From: Blasia pusilla
Lineage: Eukaryota
NCBI GenBank assembly: GCA_050084515.1
Contig: CM114271.1
Coordinates: forward strand, 4,278,001 to 4,342,000
Reading direction: 5' to 3'
DNA length: 64,000 nt
Shown: piece by piece, positions 12,203 through 55,908 of the stretch
How the letters are laid out: each line of letters starts with the position of its first letter
Numbering within the stretch: the stretch's first letter is position 1
The notes under the pieces: model-generated
The model's database searches: none
What the model was told of the DNA's origin: nothing
What the model saw: only the letters and a program-made list of their open reading frames with translations
Position numbers and translations under genes: made by a program

Positions 12203-15200
12203 GACCGCTTCTAAGTTGGAAGAATGTATTTGCATAGAAGCAGACTGTGATGATCTCCAGCTGCTTTCTTCACCAATCTCACACCTGTTTCTTTCTTGTC
12301 GAGAGAACCCTACCGCACTCAATGCGTCTGGCCTTTCAACTTGCTGTTCAAGAATCTAGGTCTTCTTCGTTCTATCCCTCCTCCTCCCAATTCTGATTAC
12401 GTTTCTTTCTTCGCACTGATCCCTTCTGCTCCTGCTTCCTGTCTCCAAGATCTTGCCTAAACAAGCACGCAAGATGTGGCGGTACGGTTATCCAATGTCC
12501 CCGACGTTTGCCAACACTACATTTCACGTTACGACAGACTATCAGTATATCTTTCGATAGTGTACAGGGCCCTGGGGTTCAACAAGGGTGAAACATGAAA
12601 CTACGCTTTTGCTTCGGTTTCCTCCTCATGATCCAGCTCAGCTTCGTACCTCCCCCCGCCCCCCCCCCCCGCACTGTGCACCTTCAGCTCGTTGGATCTC
12701 TGACGCACTTTCCTTTATAATGTCCCTTCCTCCCCTCCCTCGCGACAATCGACGGCGCACCGTCATATCCCAGCCTGCCCCTGATCTGCCTTCAACGGCG
12801 CACCGACAACCCCGCTCTCCGTCAACTTGCCCGCGCCAGAAATGGCAACGCGCGGCCCCACCGTCACCGTCTCGGCGCTGCAACATACCGTTGGCATTTC
12901 CCACTCCCCGGCATATCCTCCCCGCTCCTCGTGGAATTTTCTTTAGGGGGTTGTTTTTTCTGAGAGACGGACTCTCACCCACAGTCGTTCCTCGACATGC
13001 GGAGCCTAAAAGCTACTGCAGTTGAAGCAGCGATCCTTGTCGCCACCACGGAGGAAGCAGGTTGCAGTACAACGCGGCGTAGTGGGGAAAAAACTGGCAC
13101 GCAGTTGAGAGCCGTTATCACAGGGCTGGGGGCGGATGTGCGAAGGCCTGGAGCCGACGCGCTGTTCCCGTCATACGGCCTGAGTGCCGAGGAAGACGCT
13201 TACTAGTACCTACAGTAGATTGCGCTCCCCGACATGGGGGGAGGAACATGTAATGTGTAACATGTATAAGTGCGTTCAATGAATCCGGGAAAGAAGATGA
13301 CATGGAGATTCGTTCCGGATTCTTCGGGGTCGTTGTCTCGGGGCGAGGGCGTCTCGCACAAGTAAGAGATATGCTTCTGTCCAAGATGAGCATGCGTGTA
13401 TTTCTGGGCCAACGCTACCAGGGAGTAAAGGTTCCGCATATCAAGACATCTGAGAATTTGAAACCGAGGAGGAAACGCCGCTTTAGTGCACCGGCAGTAG
13501 TGGCATTCCCGATTGTCGCACATGTGTCCGCTCCGTGAGTGGATATCAGGCCAAGTCACTGCAGTCATCATGTGCAGCTCAACAGCGGCGCCCGCACTCC
13601 ACATCGCGTCGATGGCTGTGGCGGGCAGGTCGACGAATGTCCAGTGAGTGAGTAGATCGGTTGTAAGAATTAGCTCTCCGTTGCGGCGTCTGCTAGGAAT
13701 CCAACTTGCATTAAGCGGCCCACGAACTGATTCGAGAGTACTCTCCGGAGTCACCTGCAAGTAGGAGGCTACAGTCCCAGATTCGAAGAGCGCTTAGAAT
13801 GGATCGAGAAACTATACATCCGACAAAACCTTATAAATAGATCAACATCTACACTCTTTAAATCTGTCAATGCACGAATTTACTAAATCTGTCGATGCAA
13901 GACTTTACTAAACCTGTCAATGCACGATCAAGAAAGAGATTGGTGTGACCATGTGGATTTGTGATCATTGGACTTGTGAGGAGGAAAGCACCACTGCTCC
14001 GAAAATCACATGCGAGGCACCAACCGAAGCGAAACAGTGGGCATTTATATCGGAGGGCTAGAAAGGAAGAAGCGTACAGGGAGAAGAGGCATCGAATGCG
14101 AGAATTCGCTTCACCATTAGGAAGCACGGACGGGAAAAAATGATATTGTAAAAGTGCTGCAAATGTTAAAGAAAAACATAGAAAAAATGAACTCGCGTCG
14201 TCACCTAGTATCGCATCTGTCCAAAAGTACAGCTGTCGAGACGACGACAGATGGAAAATAAGATTTCCAGAATGGCGTCAAAGCATGGTAGGAATCTAGA
14301 AAGAAAAGCCGCGACAGGGTTTTCTCTCAAAAGCACTACAGTCATAAGAATCCCAACGCACGGGACGATCGCAAACACTGTGAGCTGCGTTCGCAATCAC
14401 AGGCGTTGAGATTGCCAAATAAAAGTGTTTAACCTAGGAGATGGACGTTCGAATGGCACGGTGTTGAGGAAATGCACATCATGTCTTCGCAGACCGAACG
14501 TCACATAGCCGTGGATTAGGTCGAATCTACCTTTACTCTAAAACTTTAAATGCTCAAGCGTTGGATGCACGTGGATATTCGGCGTTCTGCGAACACGATC
14601 TAGCGGATCAAAGTAAGTCGAAGCTGAGCCGCAATAAGGAAGAGAAATATCAAACACGGCTTGCACCTTGGGGAAACCAACTGCGGTGAAAATCTAGCCG
14701 AATCGCACTTTCTTCTCTCAAGTGACTCCTGTCCTCGGCTAGACGTTAATGTTACACGGCGGCTTAACAGAAAGGTTTTCTTGGCACTCACACACTTCAC
14801 GCGGATTCAGCTGTAAGTTGTACTCGAAGTAGGCATGTCAAACAGAACTATCACTCAGAAATGGGATCAACAAGAAGTGAGAAAAAGTTTCATTTCCACC
14901 TTTAGTACCACAATTTGAACGGCGAGGTTGTTGCTTGTAATCGAGGACAATAACAAGGCGTGTGGCCTGCCGGCATTACAAATGAATGAGAATCTTTTAA
15001 CATTCATTTAATACACAATCGACCCAAGCTTGCTTCACAAGAAACAAACTACGAGTCGGTGGGACGCACAGGATTGATTACGAAAGCCAATGAGGTTTGC
15101 TTTGGAGTTACATGCTGACAAGCAATAAGCAAGCGCACGCACCGTTGTTCGCTCGCTCTCGAGGGAAGAGACAGAAACATTACTGAAAAGCCCCATTCAT

Positions 15201-17589: not shown

Positions 17590-18220
17590 GATTAGGAGGA
17601 GACACGTGGCCGAGATATTCACAACAACGGGGTAATCTTGGGATACCTACGTACTAGCAACATAGTGGACACGATGTATGCCAACGATTAGGATTGGATC
17701 CTATCACAAGCAAGATAGGGGACATATGCTTTAAGAGTTTGAGAGCCTAAGGATGGTAGAATGCAAGTGGTGCTTCGTCTTCTTAGAGAGCATATTTGGT
17801 GCAACATGCTCACGAGGAATAGGAGCATTTTGGGATATAGCGTACATATAGCTTGCTCTAGTTACAATATTGGTGGCGAGGCACGCAGACAAATGTATAA
17901 TAGTTTGTTGCCTTGTGTATGGTATGTGTTCAGGTGCGAGTATTGTACAATGTTATGACTCCACAATTGCATCCACTATAGATCTTGGGTTTAGGCTACC
18001 GATGGAATTTAGATTTTGCAAGGCCTTTACTATTGAAGAAGTGCCACAATCATTATTTTTTGGTGAGGATCGAATAGTATAACGAATACTTCTTGAAGTG
18101 AATAGAGTTGGTTAGATTATTTGACAAGGTGAGTGAGGGAGTAGTGTATGCACTCCTCAATCGAGTGTAGATTCAATTTGGTGTACCACTAAAAGTGTTG
18201 ACGAACCATGGATGCTTGTG
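17590..18220 (+). mobile_element. Degenerate Gypsy integrase fragment related to the DNMT-carrying family
   Basis: Remnants matching QHAHEELGHFG, WWRG, PQLHPLPIMGLGYR and EGVAYAFLDRV of element 1. Confidence 0.65.
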
Positions 18221-19427
18221 GATGGAGAGGCAAAGGTGGGAATGAGATGAAAAAAACGTTTTTCATCACAAATAAGTCTATCCTATGGATGGAAATATTT
18301 TTGTCTATGAGATACAAGTTTTTATAGGAGATGTTTTTGTAATTACTTGCCTCCATGTCTAGACTCCATTGTTGAATGTGTTAGCCTAATGCTTTGTGTG
18401 TGTGGTTAGTAACGATATGCACATATGTGTACAACAACACAATCCTCATGACTAACAACAAAGAGGACGTGATTAAAAATCACCACAAAAGATTATGAAC
18501 TTTCTTCCAAATGAAAAGTCTCTTGAATGAGCGAAACATTCCCATAATGACCTAAAATGCATAGTGATCTTCCCCCTCTACAAAGCATATTAAAGCTAAG
18601 CCCCCTTTAGCAACAAGAAAGTTTGCACATGTCTCACACGTCCTTAAGAGAGTTTGGATACATAGAGCTAGCTCGACTTACGACTAATGGGACATTCGTA
18701 TCTCTCACAAAGTATGAATGTCGCACTTGGACCAGGAAATAAGTGTAAAATATAAATATAAAAAAGGATGGGAAACCCATGATGATATAAATGAGGGGGC
18801 ATAGAGAGGGAAAAAAAACCATAAGGGGCCAAAACCGGCCCCGAAGAGAAAGAAGGGGGTCTTCCCCAGCAACCAAAATCACCAATAGCAGAGACAATAT
18901 GAGCAACACCTAGAGAACTATAACTACAACTAAGTGGGCCTCTAGCATTGGCATCTCCAACCGCCAAAGCTTGCTGCAAAAATCCATTTGCCTGGGCACG
19001 TTGCGAAACTATGGAGATCCGTTGTTTACAATAAAATATCGCAGTGGCTAAGGACAATCCATTTCTTGACCGGAGATATGGGCGCTATCCGTAACCCATT
19101 TCTGGACCGGAGAGGATGAAAACAATCCGTAAGGTCTACAATGTCTACGTACGGACTTCAAATGGGTCTTTGCTTAAGTCGAGGGAGTGCTGAAACGGAC
19201 GACGAGGGGGCTACTTAAGCGTAGAGGATCGGGAAAATCGATTGGAAAACGCAGCGGAGTCTGAAACGGGCGAGGAGGGAGGAGCTGTTTAAGCGTAGAG
19301 GAGCGGGGAAATCGTGTAAAGTACAGCGGAGAGTAGTCGGGGCAGGTCGAATACTGATCGACTGAGTGAAGTTTCCACGAGCACGAAGAGGAGGGTCGCA
19401 GGTCCCACACCATCCAGAGCAGCAATC

Positions 19428-22160
19428 ATGGTCTTGAAGCTCTACGGCGAGTTTACTTCCCAGCCTTGCAGGGCTGTTGCAGTTTTTCTGAAGTAACATC
19501 TCTTATCCTCATGTTCAGCTGAATGAAGGGATTATGCTGTGTAGTACCCTGCCTTATTGTTTGTCTTGTGAAATTCTTTCGAAGTCGTACATGCTCAACA
19601 CGCGTATCAGTACGCTCGCAGTAGGAGTTATTTTACATCCTGAGAGGGTCCCTTTTTGTTGTTAGTATCGTCGAAGATACTCGGAAAGTGCTATATGTAC
19701 GATGGAAGAGTTACGCAACTCAACTTGTTACCAATTCTCCACATTGTTCTTATGTCGTATCACAAGTCAGGACACCATAATTCTTGTTGAGTTGGCCATA
19801 CTTTCATTCGGCAATGTTGGTTCTCTGCTTTATTTGGCTCAAAATAGTTCAATTTGTAGTCCACAATTCTGGAAGCGGTGTAGTTCGTGGATTTGGAATG
19901 TAGCTTCGGCCAGCCTCTTCCAACTGGCCTATCGAAAATTTTGATGGAACATGCGTTGATTAAGAGGGTGTAATATTTTGATTTTGTAGTCAATCGTTAC
20001 TTTAGGCAAATGATTTTAGCCGTTTTCTCTGATGGACAAGCTACCTTTCTTGGACATTGAATCAGGCATTTAGATGAGTGTGCTAGCCAATCAAGAAATG
20101 CTGTCACTATTGCAACTTATCGAGTCATTACCTCCTGGAACCTGTAATGCAGAGTCAACAATATCGAATACGATTTCAACATTGTGCACCTTGGGAAACT
20201 CGAGCATAGAAGCCCCGCGTTCTTAGGTGCGGTTTATGCGGCCCTTTGCGGAGTTCCCCTATTGCCTTTTCAAGCTTTTAGAGATCGATTTCAAATTATC
20301 TAACTGCTGTCATCTTATGAGTGGATGCTAAGCTGAAAGATGTGATTTATATCCAGCGGAAATCTGCAAAGATGATCGTAACTTCAAGCTGTCATCATAC
20401 GACACCTCGCATCTGTAACGCTAGACTGAGTTCCTGCCAAGAGTAACAGAAGAGTAGTAGACAATACAATTTTTTCGCTTCCATGTCCTGCCGAAATTGG
20501 CCTTGTTACTTTTCAAGAGAGTGCGCAATTCGGACTAGTATCATGGAAGTTGCCCCACGTAGTAGTTCTCTGTCAGCAAAGGTTTAAGTCTAAGAACGTT
20601 TTTCACGTTGCCTCTTCCAATGTTGTCAATCCTATGGGGCAAATACCAGCCATCGATGATGATGGTTTTTGTCTTGCCGAAGGGTGATTCCTGAAAACCT
20701 AGGTCCTTGAATGTGGGACATGCCAATGGTTTGACTGTGATATGTCGTCGCAGGATAGTCTCAATGATAGATGTGGAACAACATTTCCCCTCTGTATATT
20801 GCATTCGTGAATGGTAGATGTAGAACAACATTTTTCCGGATAATGCATTCGTGGTCGACCTGAGGTTCGTGTATGTCGAGGCAGTTCAAGGAATTCCTGT
20901 TACAATTTGTATGTCTTAACGTGTCAAATGAATGTTACATGAGAAAAGCTGTCTAGAATAGAGTACCGTGTTTCTGATTCCCTCTGGAATTTGTCATATC
21001 TTTGATCGGCTCGACGAGAAAACATGAGTCTCACCCGGTGGCAGCGCTTTGGATGTTGCTGGATTGTTCCAAAAGTTGCCACGACATGTGACGTCTGAAT
21101 ATGATTGATTTGATGTATACATTGTGAAAGAGGTTTTCTAATTTGGGCTACGTCTGTGTTTGGCACGTTACAATTTTGAAATACCTCTTGCTACACGCTC
21201 TGTACCCGCTCACTGGTGAGTCCAAGCGTTTCATTCCTTCGCTTCTGACACCGAAATCCCAAAACGCCGTTCAGTCATAGCGGAAGTCGACGAGCTTCTC
21301 TCCTTGTCTTTGGCATGAGAACAGCAGATTTCTGATTGAAGACAAATTCTGGGGCCTGCTTTAATTGCAATAGTGTGTCAGGTGTGTGAAGTGTGAAAGG
21401 TTTGTTTTTAGATCAAACTTTAGGACCTTACAAGAAACGGTATATGTATGGGTACACACTAGAAATTGCTCAGTATTAGCTGATGAACTTGAAGATTTTT
21501 CCGAGACAGGTACCCTGCAGATGTGAAGCAAAGGGCTAAACTAGACTGGATATTGGACTGGTACCATTCCAATCTTCGTAAAACTGCATGTAAGACTCTG
21601 TAAGTCTGTATTCTATTCGAGCTTTTGTTTGATACCCCTGAGATATTCTCATTATGAATCATTGCTTGTCGATGGATCACTTCAACTAGATCTTTACTGT
21701 TTAAGACGTTTTCCACACGGTTTCAGCGCCAATGTATGGATTACTTTTGACTTTGAGACGGCGATGACGTTCTCTAGAGTTCATTGAAGCCAATTGGTTA
21801 ACGGCGGATGGCCCTTTAGTGCCACTGAGCCGTCCTTGGCCGAATGTTTTTTAGCCCCTCTTCGACTCCATCACGCTAATTATAGTTGTCCTAAATTTGT
21901 GGATAATTCCGTCGGATTTTGTTTAGGTGTGAGTGTGAAACTAATGAGCGATCTGTGATTTCCTTCCTCCGGATCTTGTGCTTTATGCGGACGTGGGGGC
22001 TGGATTGCAGTTGCTGAACAAGGAAGGTCAGGAAGCGGCGCTCGGTAAAAGGGAGAAAATCAAACTGTGGGCCAAAGCATTTAGATAAATCCGCACTATG
22101 CAGAAGTGTGTGATCTGGGAAACGGCGAAAGGTCAAGAAAACACATGCCAACTATTAGAA
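19428..22160 (+). pseudogene. Disrupted paralog of theta-class GST
   Basis: Exons 1-2 match the 40450 copy. Splice acceptors of exons 3, 4 and 6 and the exon 6 donor are lost, and exons 6-7 carry multiple deletions. Confidence 0.8.
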
Positions 22161-23545
22161 ACCGGATTCTACATTGAGGATGGGGTCGGAGGACCTGTTC
22201 ATTTTGGCCTCCTACGTGTACCACAAGAACTAAATTAAGATAAGACAAGAGTTAAACCTCAATTATCGAAGGTGATTTTCACCCGTGCATTGTGCTAGTC
22301 CCTTCTTAGTAAAGGTTGCTTACGGCAACTCGCCGCCAAGTGGCGATGTTTTTCAACGTCATATCAGTACTCCCTACCGGGGTTGTGGCCTATTGTGATG
22401 GCTGAATGTCCCTCGGCCTAGTCCTATGGACAAGAAATCGTGGCGATGAGTTTTGGGTCGCTAGTTTTTTCTATGCCAAGGTTTTGGAAGCAGAAAGTGT
22501 CTGGTCCTTGTTACCCCGACTAGCAAATATCCAACCGTAACTATCAATACAATAGGGCCAGTCAAATACAGCATGTTCACCGGTCCTGGGAGCCCTTGTT
22601 ATGGTGAATCCCCAATTGAAGATGTTTGGGATGATAATAATTTTGTTTTTGTTTAATAATTATTATTATTATTAAAAGCTCAGTCGTGTGGATTGAAGGA
22701 TCATTTCTTCCCAACCCAAACTTCTTTCCCGTGGGGCAGAACTGAGTGGCCCAAATAACCATTTTTTTGGATTTTCTTTAAAAAATGGTCTCACCACAAC
22801 CTCCATGGCCGTTAGACAAAATGTGTTTCATCCAACCCCAAACTAGTGATATTGGTTGGTTTTGGCATGGCAAAGTCGCCACATTTCTTACGCCCTAAAA
22901 TTTTGAGTACAAGAAAGGCATGATGTTCTTACGCCCTCCCCGCCCTATAAGAACTTTGAAAGAACCGGTTGTTGTATGTCAAGAATGTCCCCGTGCCATC
23001 CCGCCAAGTAATAACTCTAAAAGAGTGGTTTTTTATTTCGTCAAGAAAAAGAGTCCTTTCGAGAGTGGTGATTCATAAAACACATATTTGAAAATAATTC
23101 ATTTCATACACCCACTCTCGTGGAAGTGTGGAGCCATCACAAATCTATGCACAAACTTTTTCCAGCCTAACACACACGATGGAAGGACAACCTATTGTGC
23201 TTGAGGTTGTGTTTTCCTTGTTCCTAGTAGGTTATAGCCAAGTATAATGTTGTTGTTGGATTATCCTTACGTTTGTTGCGAATAAAGAGCTCCATTCTCC
23301 CTTTCACCTAATTATTCGAGTCTCTCTCTTCTCTCCATCTTTCAATATCTAGATCTCGATCCCTCTCCAAAATCTTTTATCCATCATGATGATTCTACAT
23401 GAAGAGAGCAATCGCGCTCTCGATCAATTCCCACAAAAAGATGCTTACAACAGTTGTACCCCACACTAAAGCGCCAATTATGTTCTTTGTTCCCTCCTAC
23501 ACCTCCTCTTTCCTCCTCCTCAGATCTTTTCTTCTTCTTCTTCTT

Positions 23546-23984
23546 TGTCGTGCGAATCCACACCGTCATACAACATACATCGCTGACATATCATATTCAC
23601 ATACATACATAACATAGACGAGAGCATACACAAACACAAGTGTACCACAACTGAAATCCGTGAAAGACCTACTGTCATAAAACACATATATAATCACATA
23701 CAGCCAAACACTGGAGTAAACCACCATAGCCAAGAGCTCTACTCACTACCAAGGCTAACTCCCAACGCAACAGGCTCAACTCAAAGAACTAATTGTTCTT
23801 TGAGTACACTCCACACTATATCCTCCAACCTAAGGGCGGGCCCTACTGGAAAAGTCACCCTCAATGGAGTAAACCCCAACCCTATGTATGAAACCGCATC
23901 CCTACCTAGACACTACGGCCCTACATATGGTATGGCCTCTACTAGCACACTATACTCTACGACATAATCCGTATGGTCATGACA
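23546..23984 (-). mobile_element. Solo terminal unit (solo-LTR-like) related to the split-repeat family
   Basis: TGTCGTGCG...ACAACATACATCGCT...TGACA termini like elements 1 and 2. TCTT on both flanks (within a CTT run). Absent at the paralogous site ~44650. Confidence 0.8.
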
Positions 23985-25139
23985 TCTTCTTCTTCTTCTT
24001 TCCTTCGATCGTGGGCCTCACTTCACCAAATCACACAACATTCCTTCTCCTCCTCCTCCTTTCCTTCCTTTTGTCGCATTTTTTCCATCCTAACTTTTGT
24101 CTATCTATCCTTCCTACTCTCTATCATCATCTTCTGCATAATCTCCTTTTCGTCTGTTGTTTGCTTTATCGACTCTGTCGTGCGCATACACATCGCTACA
24201 CAACATACATCGCTATCACTGAACACACACACAAACACACACGATCCCATGCTAACTCATGACATCCAAACAACGAGACAAGAAGTACCAAAATATCTCC
24301 AATAAAGTAAGATCTCACAATCTCTCTCTACACAATCTCACACCATAGCTCTCAAAGGTGTGCACTCTCTCTCATGTCAAACTAAACCCACTCTCCTAAT
24401 GAGAGGCTTGGGTTACACTCACAAGGCAAGGGACCATAGCTCCGTCGCCTCATGCCAAGAGGTTCAACAAAGAGAGAATGAGCTCTCAAGCTCTCTCTCT
24501 CCTTGGGATATATATCCCTCCCCTCTCCCAAGCTCTCTCCATGGTAACCTATTCTCCCAAGTCACCTCTTTGGCTCTTGACCTGATGTAGGAGGTCAAGG
24601 GCCACTTAACAAAAATAGAAAGTTGATCATATACTCAAAATGGTACTTACCTAAAATAGTAATTTCCTCAATATGGCTCCAAAGGAGCCAAAACGAAGGG
24701 GAAACCTGTTCTCTCACGTTTCCCCGGGCCCTAGCAGGTCATCCTCGACCTCCCAGGCCTGTCCTCCACTACTCTTGAAGACGCTCTACTAGATCTCACC
24801 GATGTATCCTAAAGGACGTGACAACTGTCGTGCGCATACACATTGCTAAACAACATACATCGCTATCACTGAACACACACACAAACACGTACGATCCCAT
24901 GCTAACTCATGGCATCCAAACAACGAGACAAGAAGTACCAAAATATCTCCAATCGCCCCCCTAGCTGGTGGTTAGGTCCCTCTAACTCCAGATAGCCATC
25001 TATCCCTACCTTCCATGACATACATCTCTCGGACACTAAGAGCAAGAAGGTCGGGTGCTCATGTGGCCTCATCGTTAGTCGCCTTCATGTAATCCATATC
25101 AAAGAAAAAGTCGGGATCGAAACCTACCTAGTATCTCCT

Positions 25140-28100
25140 CTATGTACATCTGGGACACATCCATCGTCCCCGAGGAACCCTAGTGAGAGGTGGCGTCAGA
25201 CATGCCATATGTCAACCTCTCGAACAACCATCACAGACTAGCATTGTGGCCGCACCACGGGCAGAACCACACAACATACAACGCAAGCCTGCAGGAATTA
25301 CTGCTAAGCTCGGATCCACTATACTATCAATGTTAGGAAGGTGACATGGTCCTTCCATACCATACCATCGCGTCCCTCCAACAAGAGAACACCGGATGGC
25401 AAAACGTCACACACTCTCAGGATAGTGCGCCCTGCAGTCACATCCAACGTCATCGTTGCCGTCTGCTGCAAGTAGACATAATCTCCCTGATGAAACCTCC
25501 AGATAGTTGGTCGATAACCACCACCCCGAATAGTCGCATACCTCAATGTATCTCGATGTTGCGCAATCGCCAAGTTCTCGAACGCCATGGGCATCATTCT
25601 CTGAAATAACTCAGCCCTCTGAGAACATGCTCGCACCCATACATCTGGGTCATCAAGGTCCAACACCTCACCCGCATCTCGACGAATGGCCGCATGTAAA
25701 TCTGGCTCTCGGCCATAAAGTAGCAAGTACGGTGAAAAAGACGCTAAGGATGCCTGCTTGCTGAATCTGTATCCCATCGCCAACCATGGCAACTGGAGGT
25801 CCCAATCTCCTAGGTGACCTCTCTGCAAGCCATACTTGTGTAAACCCCTCTTCACCGTCTGCACAACTCTCTCCGCTAATCCATCCGCCTCGGGATGATC
25901 TCACAAAGTCATGCAGTGGTCGATAAGCACTTGATCACACAAGGCTTGGAACTCACCTCGAAACTCGGTACCCTGGTCTGTCAACACCTCAGCCGGTGCG
26001 CCATAATGACTCAGCACTCTGTCAAGGAAGGCATAAGCTACTCCCTCACTCGCTTTGTCAGGCAATGCAACCAACTCGATCCACTTTGAGAAGTGCTCGA
26101 CCATCACCAACACATAACGACTGTGACGCTTTGTCAAAGGCAAAGGTCCTCCAAAATCCAAACTCCATCTATACCCTAAGCCCATGATCGGTAATGGATG
26201 CAACTGTGGAGTCGGAGCATTGAACGATGCTCGGACCCAATCACACACCATGCACCTGGCAACAAACTGCTGAACGTCAGTCTGCATGCCTCGCCACCAA
26301 TCGAATCTGGAGCAAGTCGACGTCCGCTTCACCCCAAAGTGACCCAACTCCTCGTGGGCATGCTGCACTAGTCGTGCTCTCTGCGAAGGATGCGGCACTA
26401 TGAGTACTCTGCCATCCTCCCAAACCCTCAAAACATGTCTCCCCTCCCAACGGAACCGTATGGCCCGCTGTAGGATCCGATCTCGCTCTCTAGCACCCAT
26501 AGTGCTCGCAACGCTGCCCGTACAAAGGTACTCCAAGACTACTCCATCATCATGAATATCTCGGCCACCTGTCGTCTCCTCACTGGCCTCGGGATCCAAG
26601 GACTCTCCATTAGACCTCACCATCGAAGTCTCCACACTCTGGCTCTCCATAGCAAACATGCCTAAATAGGCTGACGCGTGCCATCCTGGCACCGACTCCT
26701 CATCACTCTCTCCATGCCATCGAGCTCCAGTCGCATCTCGCTGACTCGGGCATGGGTTACGACTCAACCCATCTGCATCTTGGTTGAGCCTCCCAAGTTT
26801 ATGTACCACCTGAAAATCATACTCCTGCAACAACAGAGCCCATCTCGCAAGCTTCCCTATAAGCTTGTCGGACTCCATCAACCACTTCAGTGGTTGATGA
26901 TCAGTGATGATAGTAAAGGGGTTGCCGAATAAGTAACACCTGAAATGCGCGACAGCCCACACCGCAACCAAGCACTCACCCTCATATGAGCTGTACTTTG
27001 CCTATGCAGCGTTGTTCGAGCGGCTAGCGTAAGCCACCATGAACTCTCTACCCTCATCATCATGTTGGGTGAGCACCGCTCCAAGCCCCAACATGCTCCA
27101 ATTGTGTGCAACTGGAAAGGACGCCCCCTGATCGGTCTCCTCAAGATGGGCGCAGACATCAACCTGTCCTTGAGCAACTGAAATGCTTGCTCCTGCTCAT
27201 CCCCCCAGTGCCACTCGTGATCCACCTTGGTCAGAAAGGTCAGTGGCTTCGCAATCGAACTAAATCCCTTGATGTATCGCCGATAGAAGTTTGTCAATCC
27301 CATGAATGCGCGAACCCGGCTCACATCTGTAGGGCGTGGAATGCGTGAGATAGCGTCTACCTTCGTTTGCTGAACACCAAGGCCCCCTAGGTATATCGTA
27401 TGACCCAAGTACTCAATCTGGTCGTAGAAGAACTTGCACTTGCCTGGATGTAGCTTCAACCCATGTAATTGCAATCATGGAAACACCTCCTCTAGATGTC
27501 GCTCATGCTCCTCAACCGTGGCGCTAAAGACTACGATATCATCAATATAACACCTAGCAAAATCTAGACCAGCGAAGATCCTATCCATCACCCTCTGAAA
27601 CTCAGCCGTGGTGTTCTTTAACCCAAATAGAAAGAACCGCGACTGGTACAAACAATCCTTCCCGTGAGGATCGATGCCCCAAAATGTCGTCTTCACTTTG
27701 TCCTCCAATCGATAGGCGGTGATGGTATCGGCTCATAAATCCAATGAATCAAGACCTTTGCGTGACCAATCGCATCAAAGATCTCCTCAGGGGTGGGCAT
27801 GGCATACCTATTGGACTTCGTGTGTCGATTGATAGGTCGGTAATCCCCACACATCCGCCTATCCGTCCAGTTGCCATGCACATCCTTCTTGGCGGGCATG
27901 ACAGTGGAAGATGCAAACTCCCCATGCGACATCTCGACTAGTCCTGCTCTGACCAAGTCCTACCTCCTACTCTAAATCAGAGCCCTCTCCATATCACTGT
28001 ACCTGTAGGGTCGTCGGAAGATCGGCGTATCACTTGACAACTCAATGCGGATCCCCAGTCCCTTCAGCGTACCCAAATCCTCCATGCTAAACCCAAAGCA

Positions 28101-28190
28101 ACTCCTATAACTCCTGAGGAACTGATGTATTCGGCGCCGCTCTCCTCTTGTCAACTTAGGGCCCATATCTGGCTCCCAAGTCTCCATCCT
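25140..28190 (-). pseudogene. Element 1 RT-RNase H-integrase-PHD, frameshifted
   Basis: RRMCGDYRP, YIDD, TDHQPLKWL, HEELGH..CMVC, WSLDF..VLTDQG. C-terminal CMLC..CDGC..H..C..W.CPRC at ~25140-25283. Confidence 0.92.
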
Positions 28191-28233
28191 AACTACGGTA
28201 GGACTCTCCCGCGCGCGTATCGGTGGTTGCTAT

Positions 28234-29263
28234 TGTCGCGACCCTCATAACCAAACAACACCAAATAGGCGCCAAGCGAAACATAAGAACTCCAAGGAAC
28301 TCACGTTGCGAGGTTTGCGCTTTGGAGAGGCGTTTGGAAGAGTCTCTTGGAAAAGTCTAAGAGACGAAACGCGGAACAGAGTTGTGCATTTCATGCATTA
28401 GTGGTCGCGACCAGGAAACCTAGACCATACGCAGCCGAGACTTGAGGTGAGTTGAGTCTTGGGAGGTTGGTTGCCAAAGAGGCGAGAACCAGTTTGGAAC
28501 ACGACTAGCGTTTGAGAGAATCTGACTGTGTTTAGGACCATAACGTTGATCTCCAAGATGCGTTTGAGACAAATAAGGGCGCGTTGGAAAGCTGATCTTG
28601 AGACGCTTCCAACGCACCAAAGATCTTAGAAAACGCATAAGTACAGGCTGAGATATTGGCCGAAAACAATTGAGAGACCAATCGGGTTGAGGGCCAATTG
28701 GAGAGGCCCGGGTGTCTTTCCCTAAATGTAGGGGGCCCCCGGAGATCCCCAGAAGTACTAGTAAGGAAGGACCTTCTCCGAGATGTCTCGGGAAACGAAA
28801 CCCCACTTTGGGCGCCAAACGGCGTTTCAGAGGCACGGGATGGAACAGGAGTTTGGCGCGGAAACCCGAAAACCAAACCTGATCCAAGGGAGTGGACTTT
28901 GTATGCCACACTTGGATTCCAACCCGAGATTCACTTCGTGCGAGTCTTGGTGAGGAACTCATTGGATGTTCATCGGACAGTTGGAACCGCTAGGCGCGAA
29001 ACGCCGTTTCAGGTTCCTGAACCGACCAGAAAGTCTGTCCCAAGTCTTTTGAGATTTGCCCGTGTTGGAAACCGCAAAACTAGGAAGGTTGAGCTTGAAG
29101 AGAGTCCGAGACGAGAACTCGGAAAGTAATCCCGCTGATTGATCCAAGACCCGACTAACCGAAGTGCGTGTTTGGATGCAGATCAACGTTGAGAGCCTGA
29201 CCTACTGAACGCACGCTTCCGCAACAAACAAGATTAACGTTCAAGGAGAGTAGGCGCACGACA
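28234..29263. mobile_element. Nested ~1030-bp solo LTR inside element 1
   Basis: TGTCGCG...GCGCACGACA with 5-bp TSD GCTAT; absent from the equivalent linker of element 2. Confidence 0.85.
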
Positions 29264-29519
29264 GCTATGGTGCAACCCCGTCTCGAACAACAACACTCGG
29301 CCGCTCTCCTGCAGCCAACTGCAAACTCTGCTCTCCTCCACGTGCAGTGCCTGAAACCACGCTCGATGTTGTGGCTATCATCTCCTTGCGTACCTGCAAA
29401 ACATCCCAAGAAGTCTAAGGGTGTCTCTCCGGATCTCCTCGGGTCTCGCCCCCACCCACTGCCTCCACTGTCTCGGTAGGCATGGGGCTCACCAACGCAA
29501 CCGCTGTGATCTGTCGCGA

Positions 29520-30490
29520 TCTCATACGACGCTGCTCAGCCACTCCCAAGCTGAGGATCCATGTCAAGCAATTCAGGTCCATCGCCTGACCCAAGATATG
29601 GCATCGTGATGCCTCTTATATTGACGGTACTGGCGTCACCCCTGTGGGAAATCCCATCGCTTGCTCTCTCTCGTCGGCGTTGGGCTCAACTAACCGCTGA
29701 ACATGGTCATCCCAAACCAAGCCAGGACCGGCCTCCTTGTATGCATAGGAAGCGGGAAAACTCATGAACGTGGGCAAGGCTGACCGCCGCCTGCCTACCC
29801 TGTTGACCACAGTCAATGTTGGTCGATCATCGTGCCTCACGCTGTGATCGACGACTTGGATCCAGAATGGAATCCACTAAAAAATGGGAGGGGCGCTCCA
29901 CTCTCGCATACGCCCTTCGTAATACCGCATGGGGCACCAAGTTGGTCCACCATAGACGCGGGCGATGGGCTCTAGAACCTACACTCGCCGCATCCAAGAA
30001 CACTGTTGGGCCGATCCACGCACGCACTTGATGAGCACTCGTCACCACCCATGACCGGGAGTCTCCTAAGATCGGCACATTCTCCAGAATGTAGGATGGA
30101 GAATGAGACTGGTGCTCCTGTAACTACCGTAAGACCCTCAACATCTCCCAAAACAACCTGGACCGAGTGTCAACCAACCCGCTGCCTCGTCCAGCACTTG
30201 ATTGGCCGTGACATGGCCAACCGGCAATGACCAAATCAATGGTCCCTACCCGCTCTAACTCTTGCGCCCCCAACAACGAAATATCCCTCGGTAGGGAACT
30301 CTGATACCCCTGTATTGCGGAGGCAGACAATAAGTCGAGAAAACGTAGGCGTAACTACGCCACATGTCGTAGTGAGACACGCCTCGCAACATCATCACTC
30401 TCCACATACAGGTGCCGTTGTACTCGCACTCCTGCCTGCAATACAACAGCTAACCCGGTGCTAATCCTTCCAAAGAGATCTAACACTCAA
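29520..30490 (-). pseudogene. Element 1 DNMT3-like C5 cytosine methyltransferase domain
   Basis: Motifs VLDLFGRISTG (I), IDLVIAGWPCHGQS (IV), ILENV (VI), AHRPRLWWTN (VIII), EREQAMGFP (IX). Confidence 0.88.
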
Positions 30491-30839
30491 ATATCCTCCT
30501 CCGGGGTACACCACACAATGGGTGTGGTATCCAAGGGTGTCATCGTAGCACTCCCTGCTACCTCGGGTTCCTCAGACCCATCACGCTTCGGTGCAAACGC
30601 TTCGCTCCACGCGGTCTGCACGTGCTCATTTGCCAATCGTCGAAGCTCCTCAGTCGAGCCCCACATCGGCACCTCTCCTCCACGGAATGATGCACCTACC
30701 ATAACACTCCTCTCCATAGAAATGTCAGGAACGGGAGTATCCTCTGCATGGACATGTCCCTCAATCAAATCACTAGGCCAAGTGATGGCACTGCTAAATG
30801 CTGCTAAGATCGCCATCTCTCCTGGCCGTTGCTCGATCA

Positions 30840-33350
30840 CTGCACATGTGAATCGAACGGGTAATGAGCTAAGGCGCCCATCACCTCATTGCCATCCTGG
30901 TCTATAGGACGCTGACTCCTCCCAGTAATCCAGGGAAAACCCCATCGGGTATAACACTGCTCCACCAACCAAGGCGATAGTGACTCTGCATGAGTCACTA
31001 TCGCCTTGGCGCGCACCACGGACTCATCTGTAGGATGTCCCGGGTGAATCCTCACCACAACCTCTTGTCGGGTGATATACTGTGTGGTACTCGCTCCACC
31101 CAAGGATGTCTATATCCGGAATGGACAACGCTCCACATCGGCTCTCGTCAAGCCCAATCCTCTGAATGACGCTTTCCCCAACATCAAGGGTTGCGCTCTT
31201 GAATCCAACAAGACGCGCTACGGACTAAAAGCTCTACCTCCTGGACTCACCAAGTGGAAGACCTCTCCTCGGTTATCCAGCAACACAACACCAGGAGAAG
31301 CCATGGCACGCTCTATTGCGGGTCGAGCAGGCATCTCCGCCATTCTAGCAGCCCCAGCCTGCCATGAATCTGACGTGGACGGTCCGAGCATCCGCTCCAA
31401 GGGCAGGTCCATCACCTCCTCTACAATCACCTCTGAATGTGTTGTAGGAACTCCAACTCCACGCTCACATAGCGACGCGGCCAGCCAAAAAGCCTCAGCG
31501 GGCGTACCCCCCAACGTCATAACATCGGAAGCAGAAAACAAAGGAGTGCGGAACACAACGGTGGTCGCCCCCAACAATGTGCTTGACACATGCCCCTCCT
31601 AAGCATCAACAATATGAGTCATCGCACTCGCTTCTCCCATCGCCCTCCATGCCTGCACACCAGCATCACCAACTCTTAAGGAACTTTGATGAGGACCCAT
31701 CGATGGGGTCCTCATCGCTTCGGACAACGTGAAATACTGAGGAAGCCTAGTCTGTTTTCTGGCTTCCCCTCGTTGTGGATCCAACTTTGCGGTTGCTCCA
31801 CATGTCACAACTGCGGCGGACTCCATCTAGGCAAATCCGCACATCCAAACAGGATCCTCCAGATCTCTAGCTGCTCCATATGATGTCGATGCCACGGATC
31901 TGGCATCGGGTAACCTCAATGCCATAGCGGCAATCTGCTCCTATAGCTATTGTATCTGAGCAGCCATCCCAGCCTCACATCCGGCATCTCCCTCGGCGCG
32001 TCTAGGTGGTGGTACTCTACCTCCTCCATGGGCAGCTCCACCACCCTGTCGGGCAACTCCAGCTCCTCGTCCCCCAACGGGACCACCTGGTGCACAATCT
32101 CTAGTCCCACCCGGACCGGCTACTCGCTCTGGTGCCCTCTCTGGCCCTCGGTCCGAACGTAACTCATGATGTAAACTGAAACACCTGGCGTGTGTATGAC
32201 CATACCTCTGACAATAGTCACACTGATAACCTCCTGGTGCAGCACCATCTCCTCCTCCATGCTGAGGCATACGTCCATGACCCTGACGAGTGCAATGGCG
32301 CTGATGATGGGCTCCACCACATGACCAACAAGTAATAGTAGGCGGTTTCTGTTGAGTCGCATATGAAGGCGCAGGTCTCTGTGCCACGGGCTCCGAGTAT
32401 CCTACCTGAGCTCGTGGTGCCACAGTTGACCTATCTCAGAGTCCACGTTGCTGCATAGGTGGTGCAGCCAATCGCGACTGCTCTCGCCCAGAACCCATGG
32501 TGGCTACGCTCTCCTCCGCCATGTTGCGCTCAATATTCTCGGTGGTCCTAAAAACATCTCTCAACGTAGGTGAGGTGTTCATAAGAAGCACCCCCTCCCG
32601 CACCCATGGCCGCAGGGTCTGGTCCAGCATCACATACCATGACTGGATAGCCTGAGCCTCTGTCACTCCCTGAGTGACGTTGATCAACCGGCGCAAGCGA
32701 GTGTAAGCCTCACGTAAACTCTCATCCAGGCGCCTCTGGAAGTTGTGGATGCTCCGCAACTTTTCCGTCCATACCCCTTGGTAGCTCGCCCTCAACTCAC
32801 CAAAGAACTCAACCACGGAGTTGAACCTGGGACGAACCCGACTAGACGGTGCAACTACTCCAGTGCGAGTGACCCCTCCTAAAACATCACTAGTGGAAGA
32901 GGAAGTAGCCTCTCCTGACTCCTCCTCCTCGTGTGGGAATGGCTCCGTCCATGATTCATAGTGTGGGTCGTAGTAGAGTCGCCATGCCTCAATCTCCTGG
33001 GCATATCTGTGGGAAAACTGATGGTAATCGTCCATGGGTGCCCCCTCTAAATGCTGGAACATATCGTTCCACGTTGTAAACGGGTTGAACTCTCTAGAGT
33101 TCGTGGCCCACTGGGAACTGCACCAACTCCTAAACTCTGCTATGAAATCGTGCAACTCAATCGTACCTACTGCACCTGAAAACCTACGCAATCCTCTACC
33201 CCGGTCGTCCATCTCGTACGCCCAATTGGTAGGACCACTCAGAATATGTGGCGATGAGCTCACAAATTCCTCCACACCCTCCCCCTTGTCTAACGATGAC
33301 ACAGAAGGAGGTCGAGGTGGTCCTTGAAGTGAAGACCCTCGGAACCTCAC
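30840..33350 (-). pseudogene. Element 1 gag with two CCHC zinc knuckles, and aspartic protease
   Basis: Gag-like QRRLDESLREAYTRL; CWSCGGAHHQRHC and CDYCQRYGHTHARC; VLLDSRAQPLMLG near 31180-31215. Confidence 0.8.
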
Positions 33351-34324
33351 GCCACTCCGCGTAAAACCTCTAGAGCTACTCTCGAGTTCACCACCTCACC
33401 TCTCAAAGTCCCGAGCGGACGCCGTGATGACCCTCGTGCCTTTCTCACCCGATTACTCTTGCCTCGCGAGTAATCCCTCAATCACTCATGCCAAACATGC
33501 GGCACTCGATCTACACTCGCCCTCCCCGAGACATGTAACGTACGGCAATAAGCGGCGTGGTGCGGAAAATCGACCAGGCTATCATCTCATCCACAACCTA
33601 CCCTCAACTCCGGACATCCCACACAGGTCTATGTCCCCTAAATCACATACATAAATGTTGCTCTCAGCATCCACACACCCAATATCCCCAAATAAAATAC
33701 CCAGATCCAAGAATCCCTCACACGTGCAGGGTAAGGGACCAGAATGGGTAACCTGAACACATGTCAATGTCGCTCCTCAGCAACTGCGAAACTGCGACCC
33801 CAACTCAGTCATGGAGACAACTCCTCCAATCAGCAAGTCATACTCCTCCCGTATTGACGTTGCTCAAAACTCCTCGATAGGCAGTGCGGTTCAGCGAACG
33901 GGGCGGTGTTGCAGCAAAGACGGAGGCGGCTCGAACGGCACCGCCCTCGATGATGGGATTCGGCACTCGGCGGCATACCCTCCTCAATCAACAATAAACC
34001 CACACTCTGCTCCACAATGCTGGAGCGGCTCCGCGATGAAGACGGTGCGGTGCGGCCACCAGTGGCACGGTGTGGCAATCGGCGGCGCGTTGCGGCTACG
34101 GGCGTCACGGCACGGTACCCAATCGTCGTTGAGCGGCTACCAATCACAACATAGCAGAAGGAAATCAAAACTCAAACACTATAACATGAGGTCATATGCC
34201 ATCACAGGTTGATGACGGTGGCGGCGAAAACAAAGTACGTGATGGCGACGCAAGTCCAAGAATCAACGAACGTAATGGAAGACCCTCCACTCCGTAACGG
34301 CGGCAATGGCAACCAAGGGTGGAC

Positions 34325-34515
34325 AACGGACGGTGGACCATTGACGGTGACGGTGACGGTTGACCGTTGATGATGACGCACGAACGGTGACGGTGACGGT
34401 TGATCGTTGACCATGACGGTTGATCGTTGACTGTGACGGTTGACCATCGACAGTGAAAGTTGGCCATTGACGGTTGAAGGTTGACGGTTGACGGTGACTA
34501 TGACGGCGACGGTCG
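34325..34515. repeat. Low-complexity GACGGT(TGA) tandem array in the element 1 leader
   Basis: Repeated gacggt/gacggttga units. Confidence 0.8.
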
Positions 34516-37500
34516 CCGCCGGTGTGGCGGCTGGTTTAGGGTTTGCATAATTTAACCCTAAAAATTGCCTAGCAATGGTAGTTTTTCAATATTGACCATA
34601 ACTTTTTGCTCGTAACTCCAAATTGAGCATTGTTTGTTGCACAGCGTGCACAGCTTCACGATCTACGCTAACATCAAAAAATAATTGGAATCGGACATTC
34701 CAGTAAAAATTGGAGGGGACTGTCGTAAAGCCCAATGTCTCTTTCTTCTACCCAACATTCGGCAGGGCTTCCGCGCTTATTCCTCCCAAAAAAAATGTAA
34801 AACCTATAAAAATGCAAATGAGCAAGCGACATGATGCTCCCAAAAGCACTGGCATGGGGCAACCCGCCCCCATACTCAATCCCTATCAGAAATTGGGCAG
34901 CGCTTTCGCGCGCCACTCTTCCACACGAAAAATCGACAAATGCAATGAACAATCCAAGCAACCCTTGCTCCGATGAGCACTCCCATGAGCCGTTGAACGG
35001 GGAACACGGTCCCCAACCTGCAAAAACAGCGAGTGACCAGCGAGCTTCCCCATGAAGCTCTCTCACTCTCTCATTCTCGCATTCTCTCTTTCTCTCATTA
35101 TCTCATTCTCTCTTTGTAAAATAAGATCCAATCTCTCTCTACATAATTTCACACCATAGCTCTCAAAGGTGTGCATTCTCTCTCATGTCAAACCAAACCC
35201 ACTCTCCAAATGAGAGGCTTGGGTTACACTCACAAGGCAAGGGACCATAGCTCCGCCGCCTCATGCCAAGAGGTTCAACAAAGAGAGAATGAGCTCTCAA
35301 GCTCTCTCTCTCCTTGGGATATATATCCCTCCCCTCTCCCAAGCTCTCTCCATGATAACCTATTCTCCCAAGTCACCTCTTTGGCTCTTGACCTGATGTA
35401 GGAGGTCAAGGGCCACTTACCAAAAATAGAAAGTTGATCATATACTCAAAATGGTACTTACCTAAAATATTAAGTTCCTCAATATGGCTCCAAATGAGCC
35501 AAAACGAAGGGGAAACCTGCTCTCTCACGTTTCTCGCGGCCTAAGCAGGTCATCCTCAACCTCCTAGGCCTATCCTCCACTATTCTTGAAGACGCTCTAC
35601 TAGATCTCACCGATCTATCCTAAAGGACGTGACAACTCAACCCTCATCCTCACCCGTTTGCTTATTTCGGTTCCTCCACTGAGGGACCGCCTCTTTGCGT
35701 GGATGGCTATATTAGACTATTTGGTGGATCCGTAATCTACCAATATTGTGACGCATGAGGGCAAGTGTTTCTGGCAAACAAAGAGTTCCATTCTCGCTCC
35801 CAGAGTTGTGCCTTACATACACCACCGTCCCTTGAATTTTGAGTAGTTTGACTTTCCTCCCCAAACGGATTGTCCAACACTTTTGTGAAAGTCATTCGCA
35901 CGATCTCAAGCTGGACTCTGGAGTTTTATAGAGGTGGTGCGTTCACTCCATCCCAAGCTTTCCTGTGGATTTGATGATTGTATTCCATTTCTTATGTTTG
36001 AGCTTATTGCACCCATCCCATTGTGGGCACTCTAAATGTTTCAATATCTAGTGTCTTGAATGTCATTTGGAAGCAGTTTATGGCACTGCACAACCTCTTC
36101 CATCTCTTACATATTCCCAAACGTCAGACTTAGGGTTGTATTGTAGTGCACATATCTTGGATTATTTGTTGGGAGTTTAGATCATAGCAAGTCTTTTTCA
36201 GCCAATATGACATGCTTCTAGCCAAGTCTATCCAAGTCTATCCAAGGGTCTTTTACCTTTCTTGCCTCACCCTTATCACTTTAAGTGGTTGCGCCCCTTC
36301 TCTCCTAAGGTTAGTCTCAAGGTGCATGCATATCTTTACTAACTTTAGTCTATGGCACGTTCCTTTCTAGTCTTGTGACTATCTGGTCTAGGTTGTGACT
36401 TTGGCACGTCGCATTTTAATCTTCACAATGGATTTCCCTTTCAACACCAAGTCGGATTCGCCTCCATCTCTACGATAGTTGCTTTGAGATGCTTTTACGC
36501 ATCGTCTTGGTTCTCAATCGACTATCAGTCTTCATTTGACAATAAGGGTATCTCAATAGATATTTCCCATGGAAGATCCAATTTGGAAGGGTAAGGTGCT
36601 TCTTTTGTTGTAATTTCTCCCAAATGTGAATAGATAATCACCTTCAATAGCGAGATTGTGTCTAATGTCATGAGATTCATGGAAAACACCCCTCTTTTGA
36701 AAAATCCACATGGTGAATACCATGTTAGTCTGCTAAAGATACTGGACTTAGAAAAGTTGGTTGCGGATGTTCAAAAAGGTTTGACTTCAAGCATTGTTGG
36801 TATTGGCCTTGATTAAGGAACATACCCTCCTTGTTCTCCATCCCTCTTTCTACAATTATCATGGAATCTCGAGACATTCCCATGGCATGGGTATTGGATT
36901 GACATATTACGTAAGGAAACGCTAGATCTTCTCTAAGACATGTCTTGAATTCCTACAAATGAAACATGAGTCATCTGGTTGGTATTGCCTCTCAAATGGT
37001 TGGTTATAAGGAGAAAGACCACCTAAAATTTCTCTCTGTGGATTGAGATAATCTGGCTCATGCATTGGCTCCAAACTTGCTAAAGGATAAGAAAACAATG
37101 GATTGTGGTTTGAACATGTGATTCAAGATATACCATGGGAGAAAATTCAATTTTCCAATCTCAAAAATCTGAAAATAATATGTATTAGACCTAATGGCAC
37201 AAAGTATATGCTTTGATGTCACATCTACTTTCAAAATGGTTGGTAAAGTTGCACTTGCAGCAGCAACAAACAACTCAAGTTGAACTTGTGTGTCTTGTAT
37301 TGACTTCTAAGTCTCAGATGGTAGCGCAAAAGCAACATAGTCAGTAGATCAGCCGTAGCAAGATGCAGGGAGAGACACTTATCGACGTTGGCTGGTTCTT
37401 TCTCTCTAGAGCAACATCTAGTTGTGAGTATGAGCACATCAAAATTATTTCCATCTCTACCTTGCGTTGATACATGCCATGATACCATTATCGTTTCAGT

Positions 37501-38099: not shown

Positions 38100-39430
38100 T
38101 ACCAATCTTCTTACGTAGTTATAAAGGTACAATGATATGGAAAGGACCGTGTTCCAAGCAAGAGCCATGACTTCATTGATGTAGAACTAGTGGAGATGCC
38201 ACATGGAGAGTATGCACTGTTTCAATTTTTGTTTAGATGTGACATTGACGATATGGTTGTCTTCAATAGCATGGTTAAGGAGCATGATCAACATCTTGCG
38301 TATGTGTTTCAACGATTGTTATTATATGAACTGCAGTAATGTGACATCCATGCAAGTGCCAATATTTCTATGACAAAATCAAGTACATGGGTCATATAGT
38401 ATACCCAAGTAGACTTAGTGTTCAACATATAAAGATTTAGACTATTTTGCGCATTCTACACCCTAAAGATGAGCTAAGTTTGGGCATTCAGGGGATTGGC
38501 GAGCTTCTATCGATGGTAGGTCAAGGGATTTCATGCGATTGCAAAGCCTTTGACCTTATTCATGAAGGTGATCAAGAGTTATAGTGGAGGATGAGTAGAA
38601 GAGAGCATTTCAATTGCTTAAGGACTAATTGGCATTTGTGGCTATCTTTAGGAAACCAATTAGGGGGCATCCTTTCCAATTGCAGATTGATTGGATTATG
38701 TTGGAATCTTGAGCAGTGTTCACCAAAAGTGATGATGAGGGTAGAGAAATTCCAGTGGTTTATGCTAGCCGCTCGAACAATGCTACAAAGGAAAAGTACA
38801 ACTCTTATGAGGGAGAATGCTTGGCTGAAATATGGGCCATTGTACATTTTAGGTGTTTTGTTTTTTGGTAATCCTTTTTCTTTCATCATCGATAATCAAC
38901 CATTGAAATGGTGGATGGAGTCCCACGAGCTTACAAGAAGGTTTTGTTGTTGTAGGGTTATGATTCGCAAATGGTATACCAACTTAAGAGACTTAATCGA
39001 GATGCAAAATGGGTTGAGTCATAACCCATGCGAGATGCGATTGGAACTTGTTGGCATCTTGAAAGTGATCATGCAAGCAAACCTTTAATTGGTGGCGAGG
39101 CATGCAAACAAACCTTTAATAGTTTGTTGCCATGTGTATGGTATCTGCTCAGGTGCGAGTATTGTACAATGCTATGACTCCACAATTGCATCCACTATAG
39201 ATCTTGGGTTTAGGCTACCGATGGAATTTAAATTTTGCAAGGCCTTTACTATTGAAGGAGTGCCACAACCATTATGTGTTGGTGACGATCGAGTAGTATG
39301 ACAAATACTTCTTGAAGTGAATAGAGTTGGCTAGATTATTTGACAAGGCGAGTGAGGGAGTAGCGTATGCACTCCTCAATCGAGTGTAGATTCAATTTGG
39401 TGTACCACTAAAAGTGTTGACGAACCATGG
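38100..39430 (+). mobile_element. Old, internally deleted pol relic of the same Gypsy family
   Basis: Remnants of LVEMPHGEYA, DIDD, YASRSNN..SSYEGECLA, FGNPFSFIIDNQPLKW and integrase; its 3' part duplicates 17870-18220. Confidence 0.75.
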
Positions 39431-53685: not shown

Positions 53686-53889
53686 TACGGAAGAGATCCA
53701 TCACGTACGACAAAGTATAGGGTTTTTTAATTCAATTTCGGGGAAGACTTATAAGGTTTTGTGGAAGAACTTAAGGGTATTTTTAATATAGGAAAACACT
53801 TATAACAAACATAGGGATTTATTAATTCTTTTTCTGTACATGGAAGATGTTCAAGGAAGTAAGGGGGAGATTAAGAAGATAGGAGACCA

Positions 53890-55904: not shown

Positions 55905-55908
<4 letters not shown>

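Follow-up and report, generated by a model that had tools for sequence, protein, structure and literature searches.

The 64,000-nucleotide stretch of the Blasia pusilla genome analysed here (NCBI GenBank assembly GCA_050084515.1, contig CM114271.1, positions 4,278,001 to 4,342,000 of the forward strand; hereafter the window, whose own numbering is used) holds two retroelements in which the element's own termini meet a second time in its interior, raising the question of what such an internal end-to-end junction does. Self-comparison delimited the two elements, E1 (24176-35634) and E2 (46806-63324), each with the order A-B-A-internal-B on the + strand and each opening with TGTCG and closing with GTGACA on that strand. 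Because the frames are on the - strand, the layout in sense orientation reads B'-internal-A'-j-B'-A', with j denoting the junction. In E1, B'1 (35118-35634, - strand, TATA at about 35316-35327) forms the 5' end, beginning TGTCAC. On the 3' side, A'1 (24826-24953, -), the start of U3 as defined by self-comparison and by PPT-side junctions, is followed by the junction GTGACA-nn-TGTCG (24818-24830, with a 2-nt spacer at 24824-24825), the 520-bp B'2 (24304-24823, -; rest of U3, TATA at 24505-24518 on the - strand, and R/U5; 95% identical to 35117-35634) and the 128-bp terminal repeat A'2 (24176-24303, -; 96% identical to 24826-24953), which is the sense 3' end of the element and ends in CGACA. E2, a second subfamily on the - strand with the same layout and 75% DNA identity to E1 in pol, has A repeats at 46806-46943 and 47416-47553, B repeats at 46944-47413 and 62903-63324 (all -) and its junction at 47408-47420 (-). 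Neither of two complete terminal LTRs was found, the 5' end carrying B' only and the 3' end A'jB'A', and a full repeat at the PBS side (A after B) occurred in none of 30 PBS-anchored loci; the split direct repeats by which PAT and Ngaro elements of the DIRS order are recognized were present, as B'-internal-A'-B'-A'.

The initial annotation had described the internal junction as joining the element's own two termini across 2 nt, and this was confirmed at both sites, 24818-24830 reading GTGACA-AC-TGTCG and 47408-47420 reading GTGACA-GC-TGTCG, with CA-3' on both strands and both halves corresponding to the termini of the respective element. Its expectation that the spacer would keep its length across copies was likewise borne out: the pattern TGACA-NN-TGTCGTG had 2,528 matches in the 390-Mb genome versus 13 for a reversed-pattern control, and other spacer lengths were rare (148 matches with 3-4 nt and 73 with 0-1 nt, control 30 in each case). 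Among 58 distinct E1-family junctions the spacer was called as 2 nt in 55 by script, and one of the three exceptions, L102, proved to be a parsing error with a true spacer of 2 nt. The letters were AC in 20, GT in 16, GC in 8, AT in 8 and others in 6 of these 58, collected with a query that itself carried AC, and GC in about 21 of 30 E2-family junctions by an eye count, with a query carrying GC. Spacer length is thus kept while spacer identity drifts. Since the letters vary among junctions, a perfect palindrome is unnecessary, and palindromy was ruled out as a required signal; the palindrome pointed out earlier does exist at 47408-47420, where the spacer is GC, but it is not conserved, GC being dominant only in the E2 family.

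The two spacer columns (24824-24825 in E1) were the second and third most variable of 1,216 in the E1 family, at 49% and 47%, compared with a mean variability of 11% at CTG sites. Plain post-insertion deamination is therefore insufficient as the sole cause of this variation. Nearly all the variants in these columns were G/A and C/T, in a family with a star-like phylogeny, and their distribution was not clearly linked to the main lineage markers.

By its predicted enzymes, though not by canonical structure, the element is a member of Ty3/gypsy. Pfam and tblastn comparisons gave the sense order C5-methyltransferase, RT, RNase H, H2C2/rve integrase and a weak C-terminal PHD match (E=0.042), with PF00078, PF17917, PF17921 and PF00665 in Ty3/gypsy order. 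The pol remnant of E1 from RT to PHD (25143-28211, -) is interrupted by stops and frameshifts, and the C5 cytosine methyltransferase remnant lies upstream of RT (29526-30486, -; PF00145, E=2.5e-8; tblastn to P0023, P0030 and P0031), so that the distinctive trait of KnitGypsy-Dnmt3-like elements, a C5-methyltransferase in a Gypsy pol region, was found here as well. As a side observation, the element with the variable spacer columns encodes its own methyltransferase. Neither gag nor aspartic protease had a Pfam match in E1; 30850-31280 matched the N-terminal part of P0031 weakly, and protease families were listed for the relatives P0030 and P0063. Among the top 58 relatives listed, PF00628 was present and PF00385, the chromodomain that self-priming chromoviruses carry at the integrase C-terminus, was absent. 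No tyrosine-recombinase family was detected by Pfam in 79 E1 frame pieces of at least 62 aa from both strands, nor any recombinase family in the Pfam lists of 120 listed relatives.

Varied 4-bp target-site duplications (TSDs) together with TG...CA ends are the signature of a DDE integrase. ACTC flanks E1 (24172-24175 and 35635-35638) and CATA flanks E2, and an exact 4-bp TSD was present in 15 of 17 paired ends. When 40 stretches were fetched for far ends, 24 such ends were found, of which 16 had an exact 4-bp TSD, 6 had three of the four letters and 2 were mismatched, the other 16 stretches being without a scoreable end of their own. Solo B'/A' units also had TG...CA ends, with an exact TSD in 9 of 10; the window holds a unit of this type from a third subfamily, E3 (23546-23984, -; TGTCGTG...CATGACA, TSD TCTT). 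These varied TSDs and ends indicate that insertion is integrase-like, and the integrase-type TSD, together with the lack of a detected recombinase, places the element outside the DIRS order as far as its sequence can be read. Separately, a target bias was observed outside the TSD in the E1 family, with A/T at -7 in 57 of 67 left flanks, C/G at -6 in 50 of the same 67 and A/T at +7 in 31 of 37 right flanks; this bias may be a source of chance TGACA-like flanks.

Priming sites define which repeat is replicated. A G-rich polypurine tract (PPT; 24954-24964, -, sense TAGGGGGGCG) adjoins A'1 directly, an arrangement seen in 67 PPT-side junctions of the E1 family. At the other side, a 16-nt PBS adjoining the end of B'1 (35102-35117, -) is complementary to 35278-35293 within B', and the primer so defined begins 32 nt past the TATA; a second copy of the self-primer lies in B'2 (24467-24482, -). 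E2 (PPT 47554-47563, PBS 62889-62902, primer 63034-63047, all -) has a different, 14-nt primer/PBS pair, starting 31 nt past its TATA. The complements of 16 and 14 nt compare with shuffle maxima of 10 and 9, a complement of at least 13 nt was kept in 22 of 29 E1-family copies, and five different primer/PBS sequence pairs were found across relatives. The arrangement is that of Tf1-type self-priming, priming itself being putative. Because the PPT adjoins A' and the PBS adjoins B', the replicated LTR would be A'-j-B', with ends that are not TG/CA and with the att pair 128 bp inside U3; the premise of the initial annotation, a replicated repeat A-B (sense) with the att site in its middle, therefore holds. 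Moreover, in 43 elements the two A copies of one element had 38 variants in common where 15.7 were expected, and in 11 elements the divergence of B copies was 4.6% within elements versus 6.7% between them, as would follow if both copies were recopied from one template. On the - strand, segments upstream of the presumed RNA start, 35301-35316 in E1 (by eye) and 63051-63068 in E2 (by folding), can pair with the primer region, and such pairing could mask the primer copy of the 3' repeat where RNA reads through it.

If the replicated repeat is A'-j-B', the true end-to-end joint is the B'/A' seam, where the U5 end meets the U3 start (24296-24312, -, with the putative cDNA-end joint at 24303/24304), 520 bp from the junction. 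The earlier view that the CA-nn-TG junction is itself the place of end joining did not survive, the junction being instead an internal, transcribed site in U3. Among 63 seams, 39 were blunt, 16 had an extra T, 2 GT, and one each TTGT, CGCCCCT and AT, the other 3 being deleted, unparsed or otherwise different; this set over-represents the blunt type of E1 itself. Among 33 loci found without a seam query, the numbers were 16 blunt, 11 with T, 2 with GT, none with TTGT, 1 with CGCCCCT, 1 with AT and 2 deleted or other. The additions T, GT and TTGT correspond to the PBS side, of which they are the initial one, two and four letters, and CGCCCC corresponds to the PPT side; retained primer letters of this kind are typical of joined retro-cDNA ends, as described for Tf1 ends and HIV-1 circles (PMC11042837). 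Unlike the seam, the PPT-side and PBS-side borders were nearly invariant. As 55 of the 63 seams were blunt or carried one extra letter, most of them could also be inherited, and a tree of 46 copies was star-like (31 of 43 inner branches unresolved) and uninformative on whether seam or spacer types follow lineage. Two aberrant loci were noted, L068/L030 (C9:11502607), in which the seam joins a shortened A to some 140 nt of sequence from beyond the PBS (L068), and L011 (C5:37452301), which has an extra junction-A-PPT piece after the PBS-side B; both are possible cases of mis-processed cDNA ends.

RNA coverage distinguished the junction from the seam. In three raw runs of one study under the same species label, with reads mostly 90-95% alike and so from other family copies, sense RNA ran through PPT, A', j and B', with depths at the junction of 92, 162 and 102. 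In the seam bin the depths were 17, 12 and 7, whereas an edge control near the opposite edge of the stretch gave 124, 146 and 134, a drop of about tenfold at the seam with some RNA still crossing the bin. A sharp RNA start or end was not called in any of the three runs. The host expresses the element family, and since depth falls at the seam, the junction would be inherited through RNA and the seam mostly not. Many reads with loose ends resembled the A repeat of E3's subfamily, which also seems to be expressed.

Taken together, these observations suggest that the junction is probably the att site used by the integrase of a self-priming Ty3/gypsy element, and that this site has shifted from the ends of the cDNA to the middle of U3. 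First, RNA would run from B'1, about 32 nt past the TATA, through PBS, pol, PPT, A', junction and B'2, mostly stopping before the seam; the sense RNA and the drop in depth are observed, and its exact start and end are deduced. The 5' end of this RNA would then pair with the PBS, to which it is visibly complementary, and prime as in Tf1. Ordinary strand transfers, expected from the positions of PPT and PBS, would give A'jB'-internal-A'jB' with ends that are not TG/CA. Subsequently the U5 end would be joined to the U3 start, at times retaining the primer or PPT letters seen in the seams. Finally, integrase would nick both strands of the PBS-side junction just past CA, generating two standard processed ends with 2-nt 5' overhangs, and insertion with a 4-bp stagger would yield B'-internal-A'jB'/A', the product whose ends and TSDs are observed. 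The same cleavage geometry was reported in vitro for foamy-virus integrase, which cuts both strands of its LTR-LTR junction 3' of CA and produces a 5' overhang of AT (PMC1180852). In a broader form that we favour only somewhat, end-joined cDNA resembling a 2-LTR circle would be the obligate integration substrate of a widespread Ty3/gypsy clade of the green lineage with a templated two-sided att cassette in U3, so that ragged self-primed ends would never need processing. In this form the circle may be closed by RT itself through a jump from end to end, and cuts at different junction pairs of the resulting longer-than-unit DNA would directly produce full copies as well as the two shorter forms described below.

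The form of the intermediate is constrained by a product that is missing. If the intermediate were a closed circle whose two junctions are equal, either of them could be opened, and the mirror form B'/A'-j-B'-internal-A' would also be expected. In the E1 family GACA-NN preceded 544 of 925 A-PPT matches versus 7 of 722 A-seam-B matches, and all seven candidate mirror copies were rejected as host flanks with no B upstream, leaving no true case among the 722. The absence of this permutation implies a one-sided intermediate. The proposal of the initial annotation, a two-repeat circle opened at one junction, is therefore supported in part but is too simple in its symmetric form. The one-sided choice of junction suggests a nicked or longer-than-unit circle rather than a relaxed symmetric one, such as would arise if RT jumped to the U3 start on reaching the U5 end. 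Shorter forms made up about a third of copies, among 30 loci B'-internal-A' in 8 and solo B'/A' in 10. They may derive from post-insertion recombination between repeats or from cuts at other junction pairs of a longer-than-unit cDNA, A'jB'-internal-A'jB'/A'j..., which would give both short forms and never the mirror form.

The best surviving alternative, which we consider unlikely, reverses the order of cutting and joining: integrase would bind the junction in the 5' repeat of a linear cDNA and insert both arms, the short A' and the long remainder, and host end-joining would then seal the break between U5 end and U3 start to make the seam, without any circle. Such a route predicts the same product, TSD and primer-bearing seams; it accommodates seam deletions with short shared sequence (L013, L074), and the 5' repeat, which would become double-stranded first, could explain the one-sidedness. 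Each insertion would, however, leave a chromosome break, and many copies lacking A'2 or with damaged seams would be expected, yet 55 of 63 seams were within 1 nt of blunt, an argument weakened by the fact that the set was chosen for having both sides. A more doubtful possibility is templating as in Ngaro and PAT elements, with an RNA that spans B'-internal-A'jB'A', an inherited seam, a junction that templates the ends and integrase in the role of the recombinase. In its favour, the split-repeat layout is that of PAT/Ngaro elements (PMC7192593; PMC5890265, Fig. 4 legend), 39 of 63 copies have the most frequent seam in common, and RNA does cross the seam at a low level. It has difficulty with a PPT and a self-priming PBS that delimit A'jB' exactly as an LTR, with the roughly tenfold fall in RNA depth at the seam, and with primer and PPT letters, whose repeated gain during a star-like burst would not be expected of a seam that is inherited.

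It is still less probable that the junction is opened not by integrase but by a second enzyme, either one of the host or a trans-acting tyrosine recombinase or other nuclease. The junction is near-palindromic, like recombinase sites, and the broken frames of E1 could hide a decayed extra gene; against this stand the DDE-type TSDs and ends and the failure to find a recombinase family in either the 79 frame pieces or the 120 listed relatives. The last rival, an ordinary LTR element (LTR = B'A') in truncated, tandem or nested copies with the junction a chance abutment of LTR ends, is the least credible and already largely refuted: the solo B'/A' units do resemble TG...CA solo LTRs with TSDs and tandem LTR structures are common in plants (PMC11899658), but a nested solo would leave a 4-bp duplication and not a fixed 2-nt spacer, A never followed B at the PBS-anchored loci, the published tandems have the order LTR-internal-LTR-internal-LTR (PMC11899658), and the same layout is repeated across hundreds of copies whose TSDs match, as well as in relatives of 43-68% identity.

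The reading of the junction as an att site moved into U3 was also compared with relatives outside this genome. Named close relatives occur in Calypogeia, Marchantia, Sphagnum, Klebsormidium, Closterium and Chlamydomonas eustigma, and many of them carry methyltransferase and PHD domains. Relatives that keep the layout have 43-68% protein identity; the design is an old one. Of 79 metagenome loci, many of which are re-assemblies of one copy and so not independent, 49 extended 1.3 kb or more past the match, and the pattern PPT-A-CA.nn.TG occurred in 31 of these 49 versus 2 of 250 control windows, with a second A in 25 of the 31. The 18 others lacked the PPT-junction pattern, several of them having a junction-like motif without a scoreable PPT. 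The metagenome junction is typically CACGACA-RY-TGTCATG, and E1 in sense orientation has the near-match GCACGACA-gt-TGTCACG. Nine distinct metagenome copies had both ends, with an exact TSD in 5, three of four letters in 3 and no TSD in 1. Of 10 distant relatives, 7 had a self-primer that exceeded every one of 100 shuffles, in five of these at 31-32 nt past the TATA, whereas the self-priming test failed in the other three, L207 (6 nt), L262 (7 nt) and L228 (10 nt). A scan of IMG/VR returned no relatives.

Several other sequences were noted in the window. A repeat of about 7 kb is present in two copies 77-96% alike, one made up of 17594-23546 with 23985-24175 and 35636-36221, the other at 38135-45402; it comprises a fragment of E1-clade RT-RH-IN in the opposite orientation and 5 kb without long frames, and self-comparison revealed no terminal repeats in it. 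E1 and E3 are inserted in its first copy. At 9965-12355 (-) lies an unbroken frame of 797 aa with BAR, PH, ArfGAP and ankyrin domains; genes of this type are usually intron-rich, and the frame is possibly a retrocopy. Two related fragments of a non-LTR-type RT, 83% alike, were located at 8127-9364 and 58728-60621, the second nested in E2, as is an array of tandem repeats of about 350 bp each (53876-55302).

Among known elements, the architecture has been described once, for KnitGypsy-Dnmt3 of Klebsormidium nitens, whose repeat structure 'is the same as that of a DIRS retrotransposon' while its domains are those of Gypsy (de Mendoza et al. 2018, PMC5890265, Fig. 4 legend). Like E1, this element combines a Gypsy pol carrying a C5-methyltransferase with a DIRS-like repeat layout (PMC5890265), and the K. 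nitens protein P0031, with the same domains, is 46% identical to the RH-IN piece of E1. Neither an att junction nor a TSD, priming site, seam or mechanism appears in its published description, the term 'target site' being absent from the main text and 'TSD' from the supplement text (PMC5890265). A literature search, mostly without subscription papers and Repbase reports, turned up neither an internal att site nor such a mechanism, and the text available for 10.1101/2020.06.13.149070 and PMC2864245 has no mention of an E1-type layout. What appears to be new is hence the mechanism, to which several independent lines of sequence evidence point, and it is offered for the so far unexplained DIRS-like layout of KnitGypsy-Dnmt3. 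It would also imply that a tyrosine recombinase is not needed for split direct repeats to arise. Finders that demand two matching LTRs, the rule of selection in PMC6317226, would overlook these elements or misplace their limits, and annotation of the clade in bryophytes and streptophyte algae is therefore probably incomplete.

In the standard view, linear cDNA is integrated through att sites at its ends, and 2-LTR circles are regarded either as dead ends or as a minor reserve (PMC4372172). The present family, whose junction copies number in the thousands, apparently integrates by way of joined ends in every case and uses an internal att site; if true, it would be the first DDE-integrase retroelement to integrate through joined ends as its normal route. 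With host expression and sharp predictions for seam, junction and mirror form, the question of circles as integration precursors becomes testable in a natural system. In Tf1/Tf2 and in Tf1/sushi/Tcn1 elements the RNA's own 5' end is the primer and the PBS adjoins the LTR (PMC5341516, PMC6317226, PMC11042837). The latter group shares with E1 the self-priming PBS and the order RT-RH-IN, and Tf1 cDNA ends often keep PBS or PPT letters; as described in those sources, however, Tf1 has two full LTRs with att at the cDNA ends, whereas in E1 att lies inside U3 and the integrated copy is permuted, and the chromodomain of Tf1/sushi/Tcn1 elements is replaced in E1 by methyltransferase and PHD. PAT-like and Ngaro elements have split direct repeats and an internal copy of the end-to-end junction, as E1 does, and a circular intermediate has been proposed for them (PMC7192593), but they use a tyrosine recombinase, in contrast to the DDE integrase, TG...CA ends, 4-bp TSD, PPT and PBS of E1. 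The 2-LTR junctions of foamy virus and HIV-1 resemble the model for E1 in that an abutted att pair is cut after CA with 2-nt 5' overhangs, on a side path in which the cut site is the ligated joint and a normal provirus is restored (PMC1180852, PMC4372172). In E1, the putative cut site is templated, internal and apart from the joint, and the product is permuted. Finally, in the circles of IS3/IS911 elements a DDE enzyme opens a junction of two abutted ends separated by a spacer of 2-3 bp; these are DNA transposons whose junction is remade from the ends in each cycle, whereas that of E1 would be inherited through RNA.
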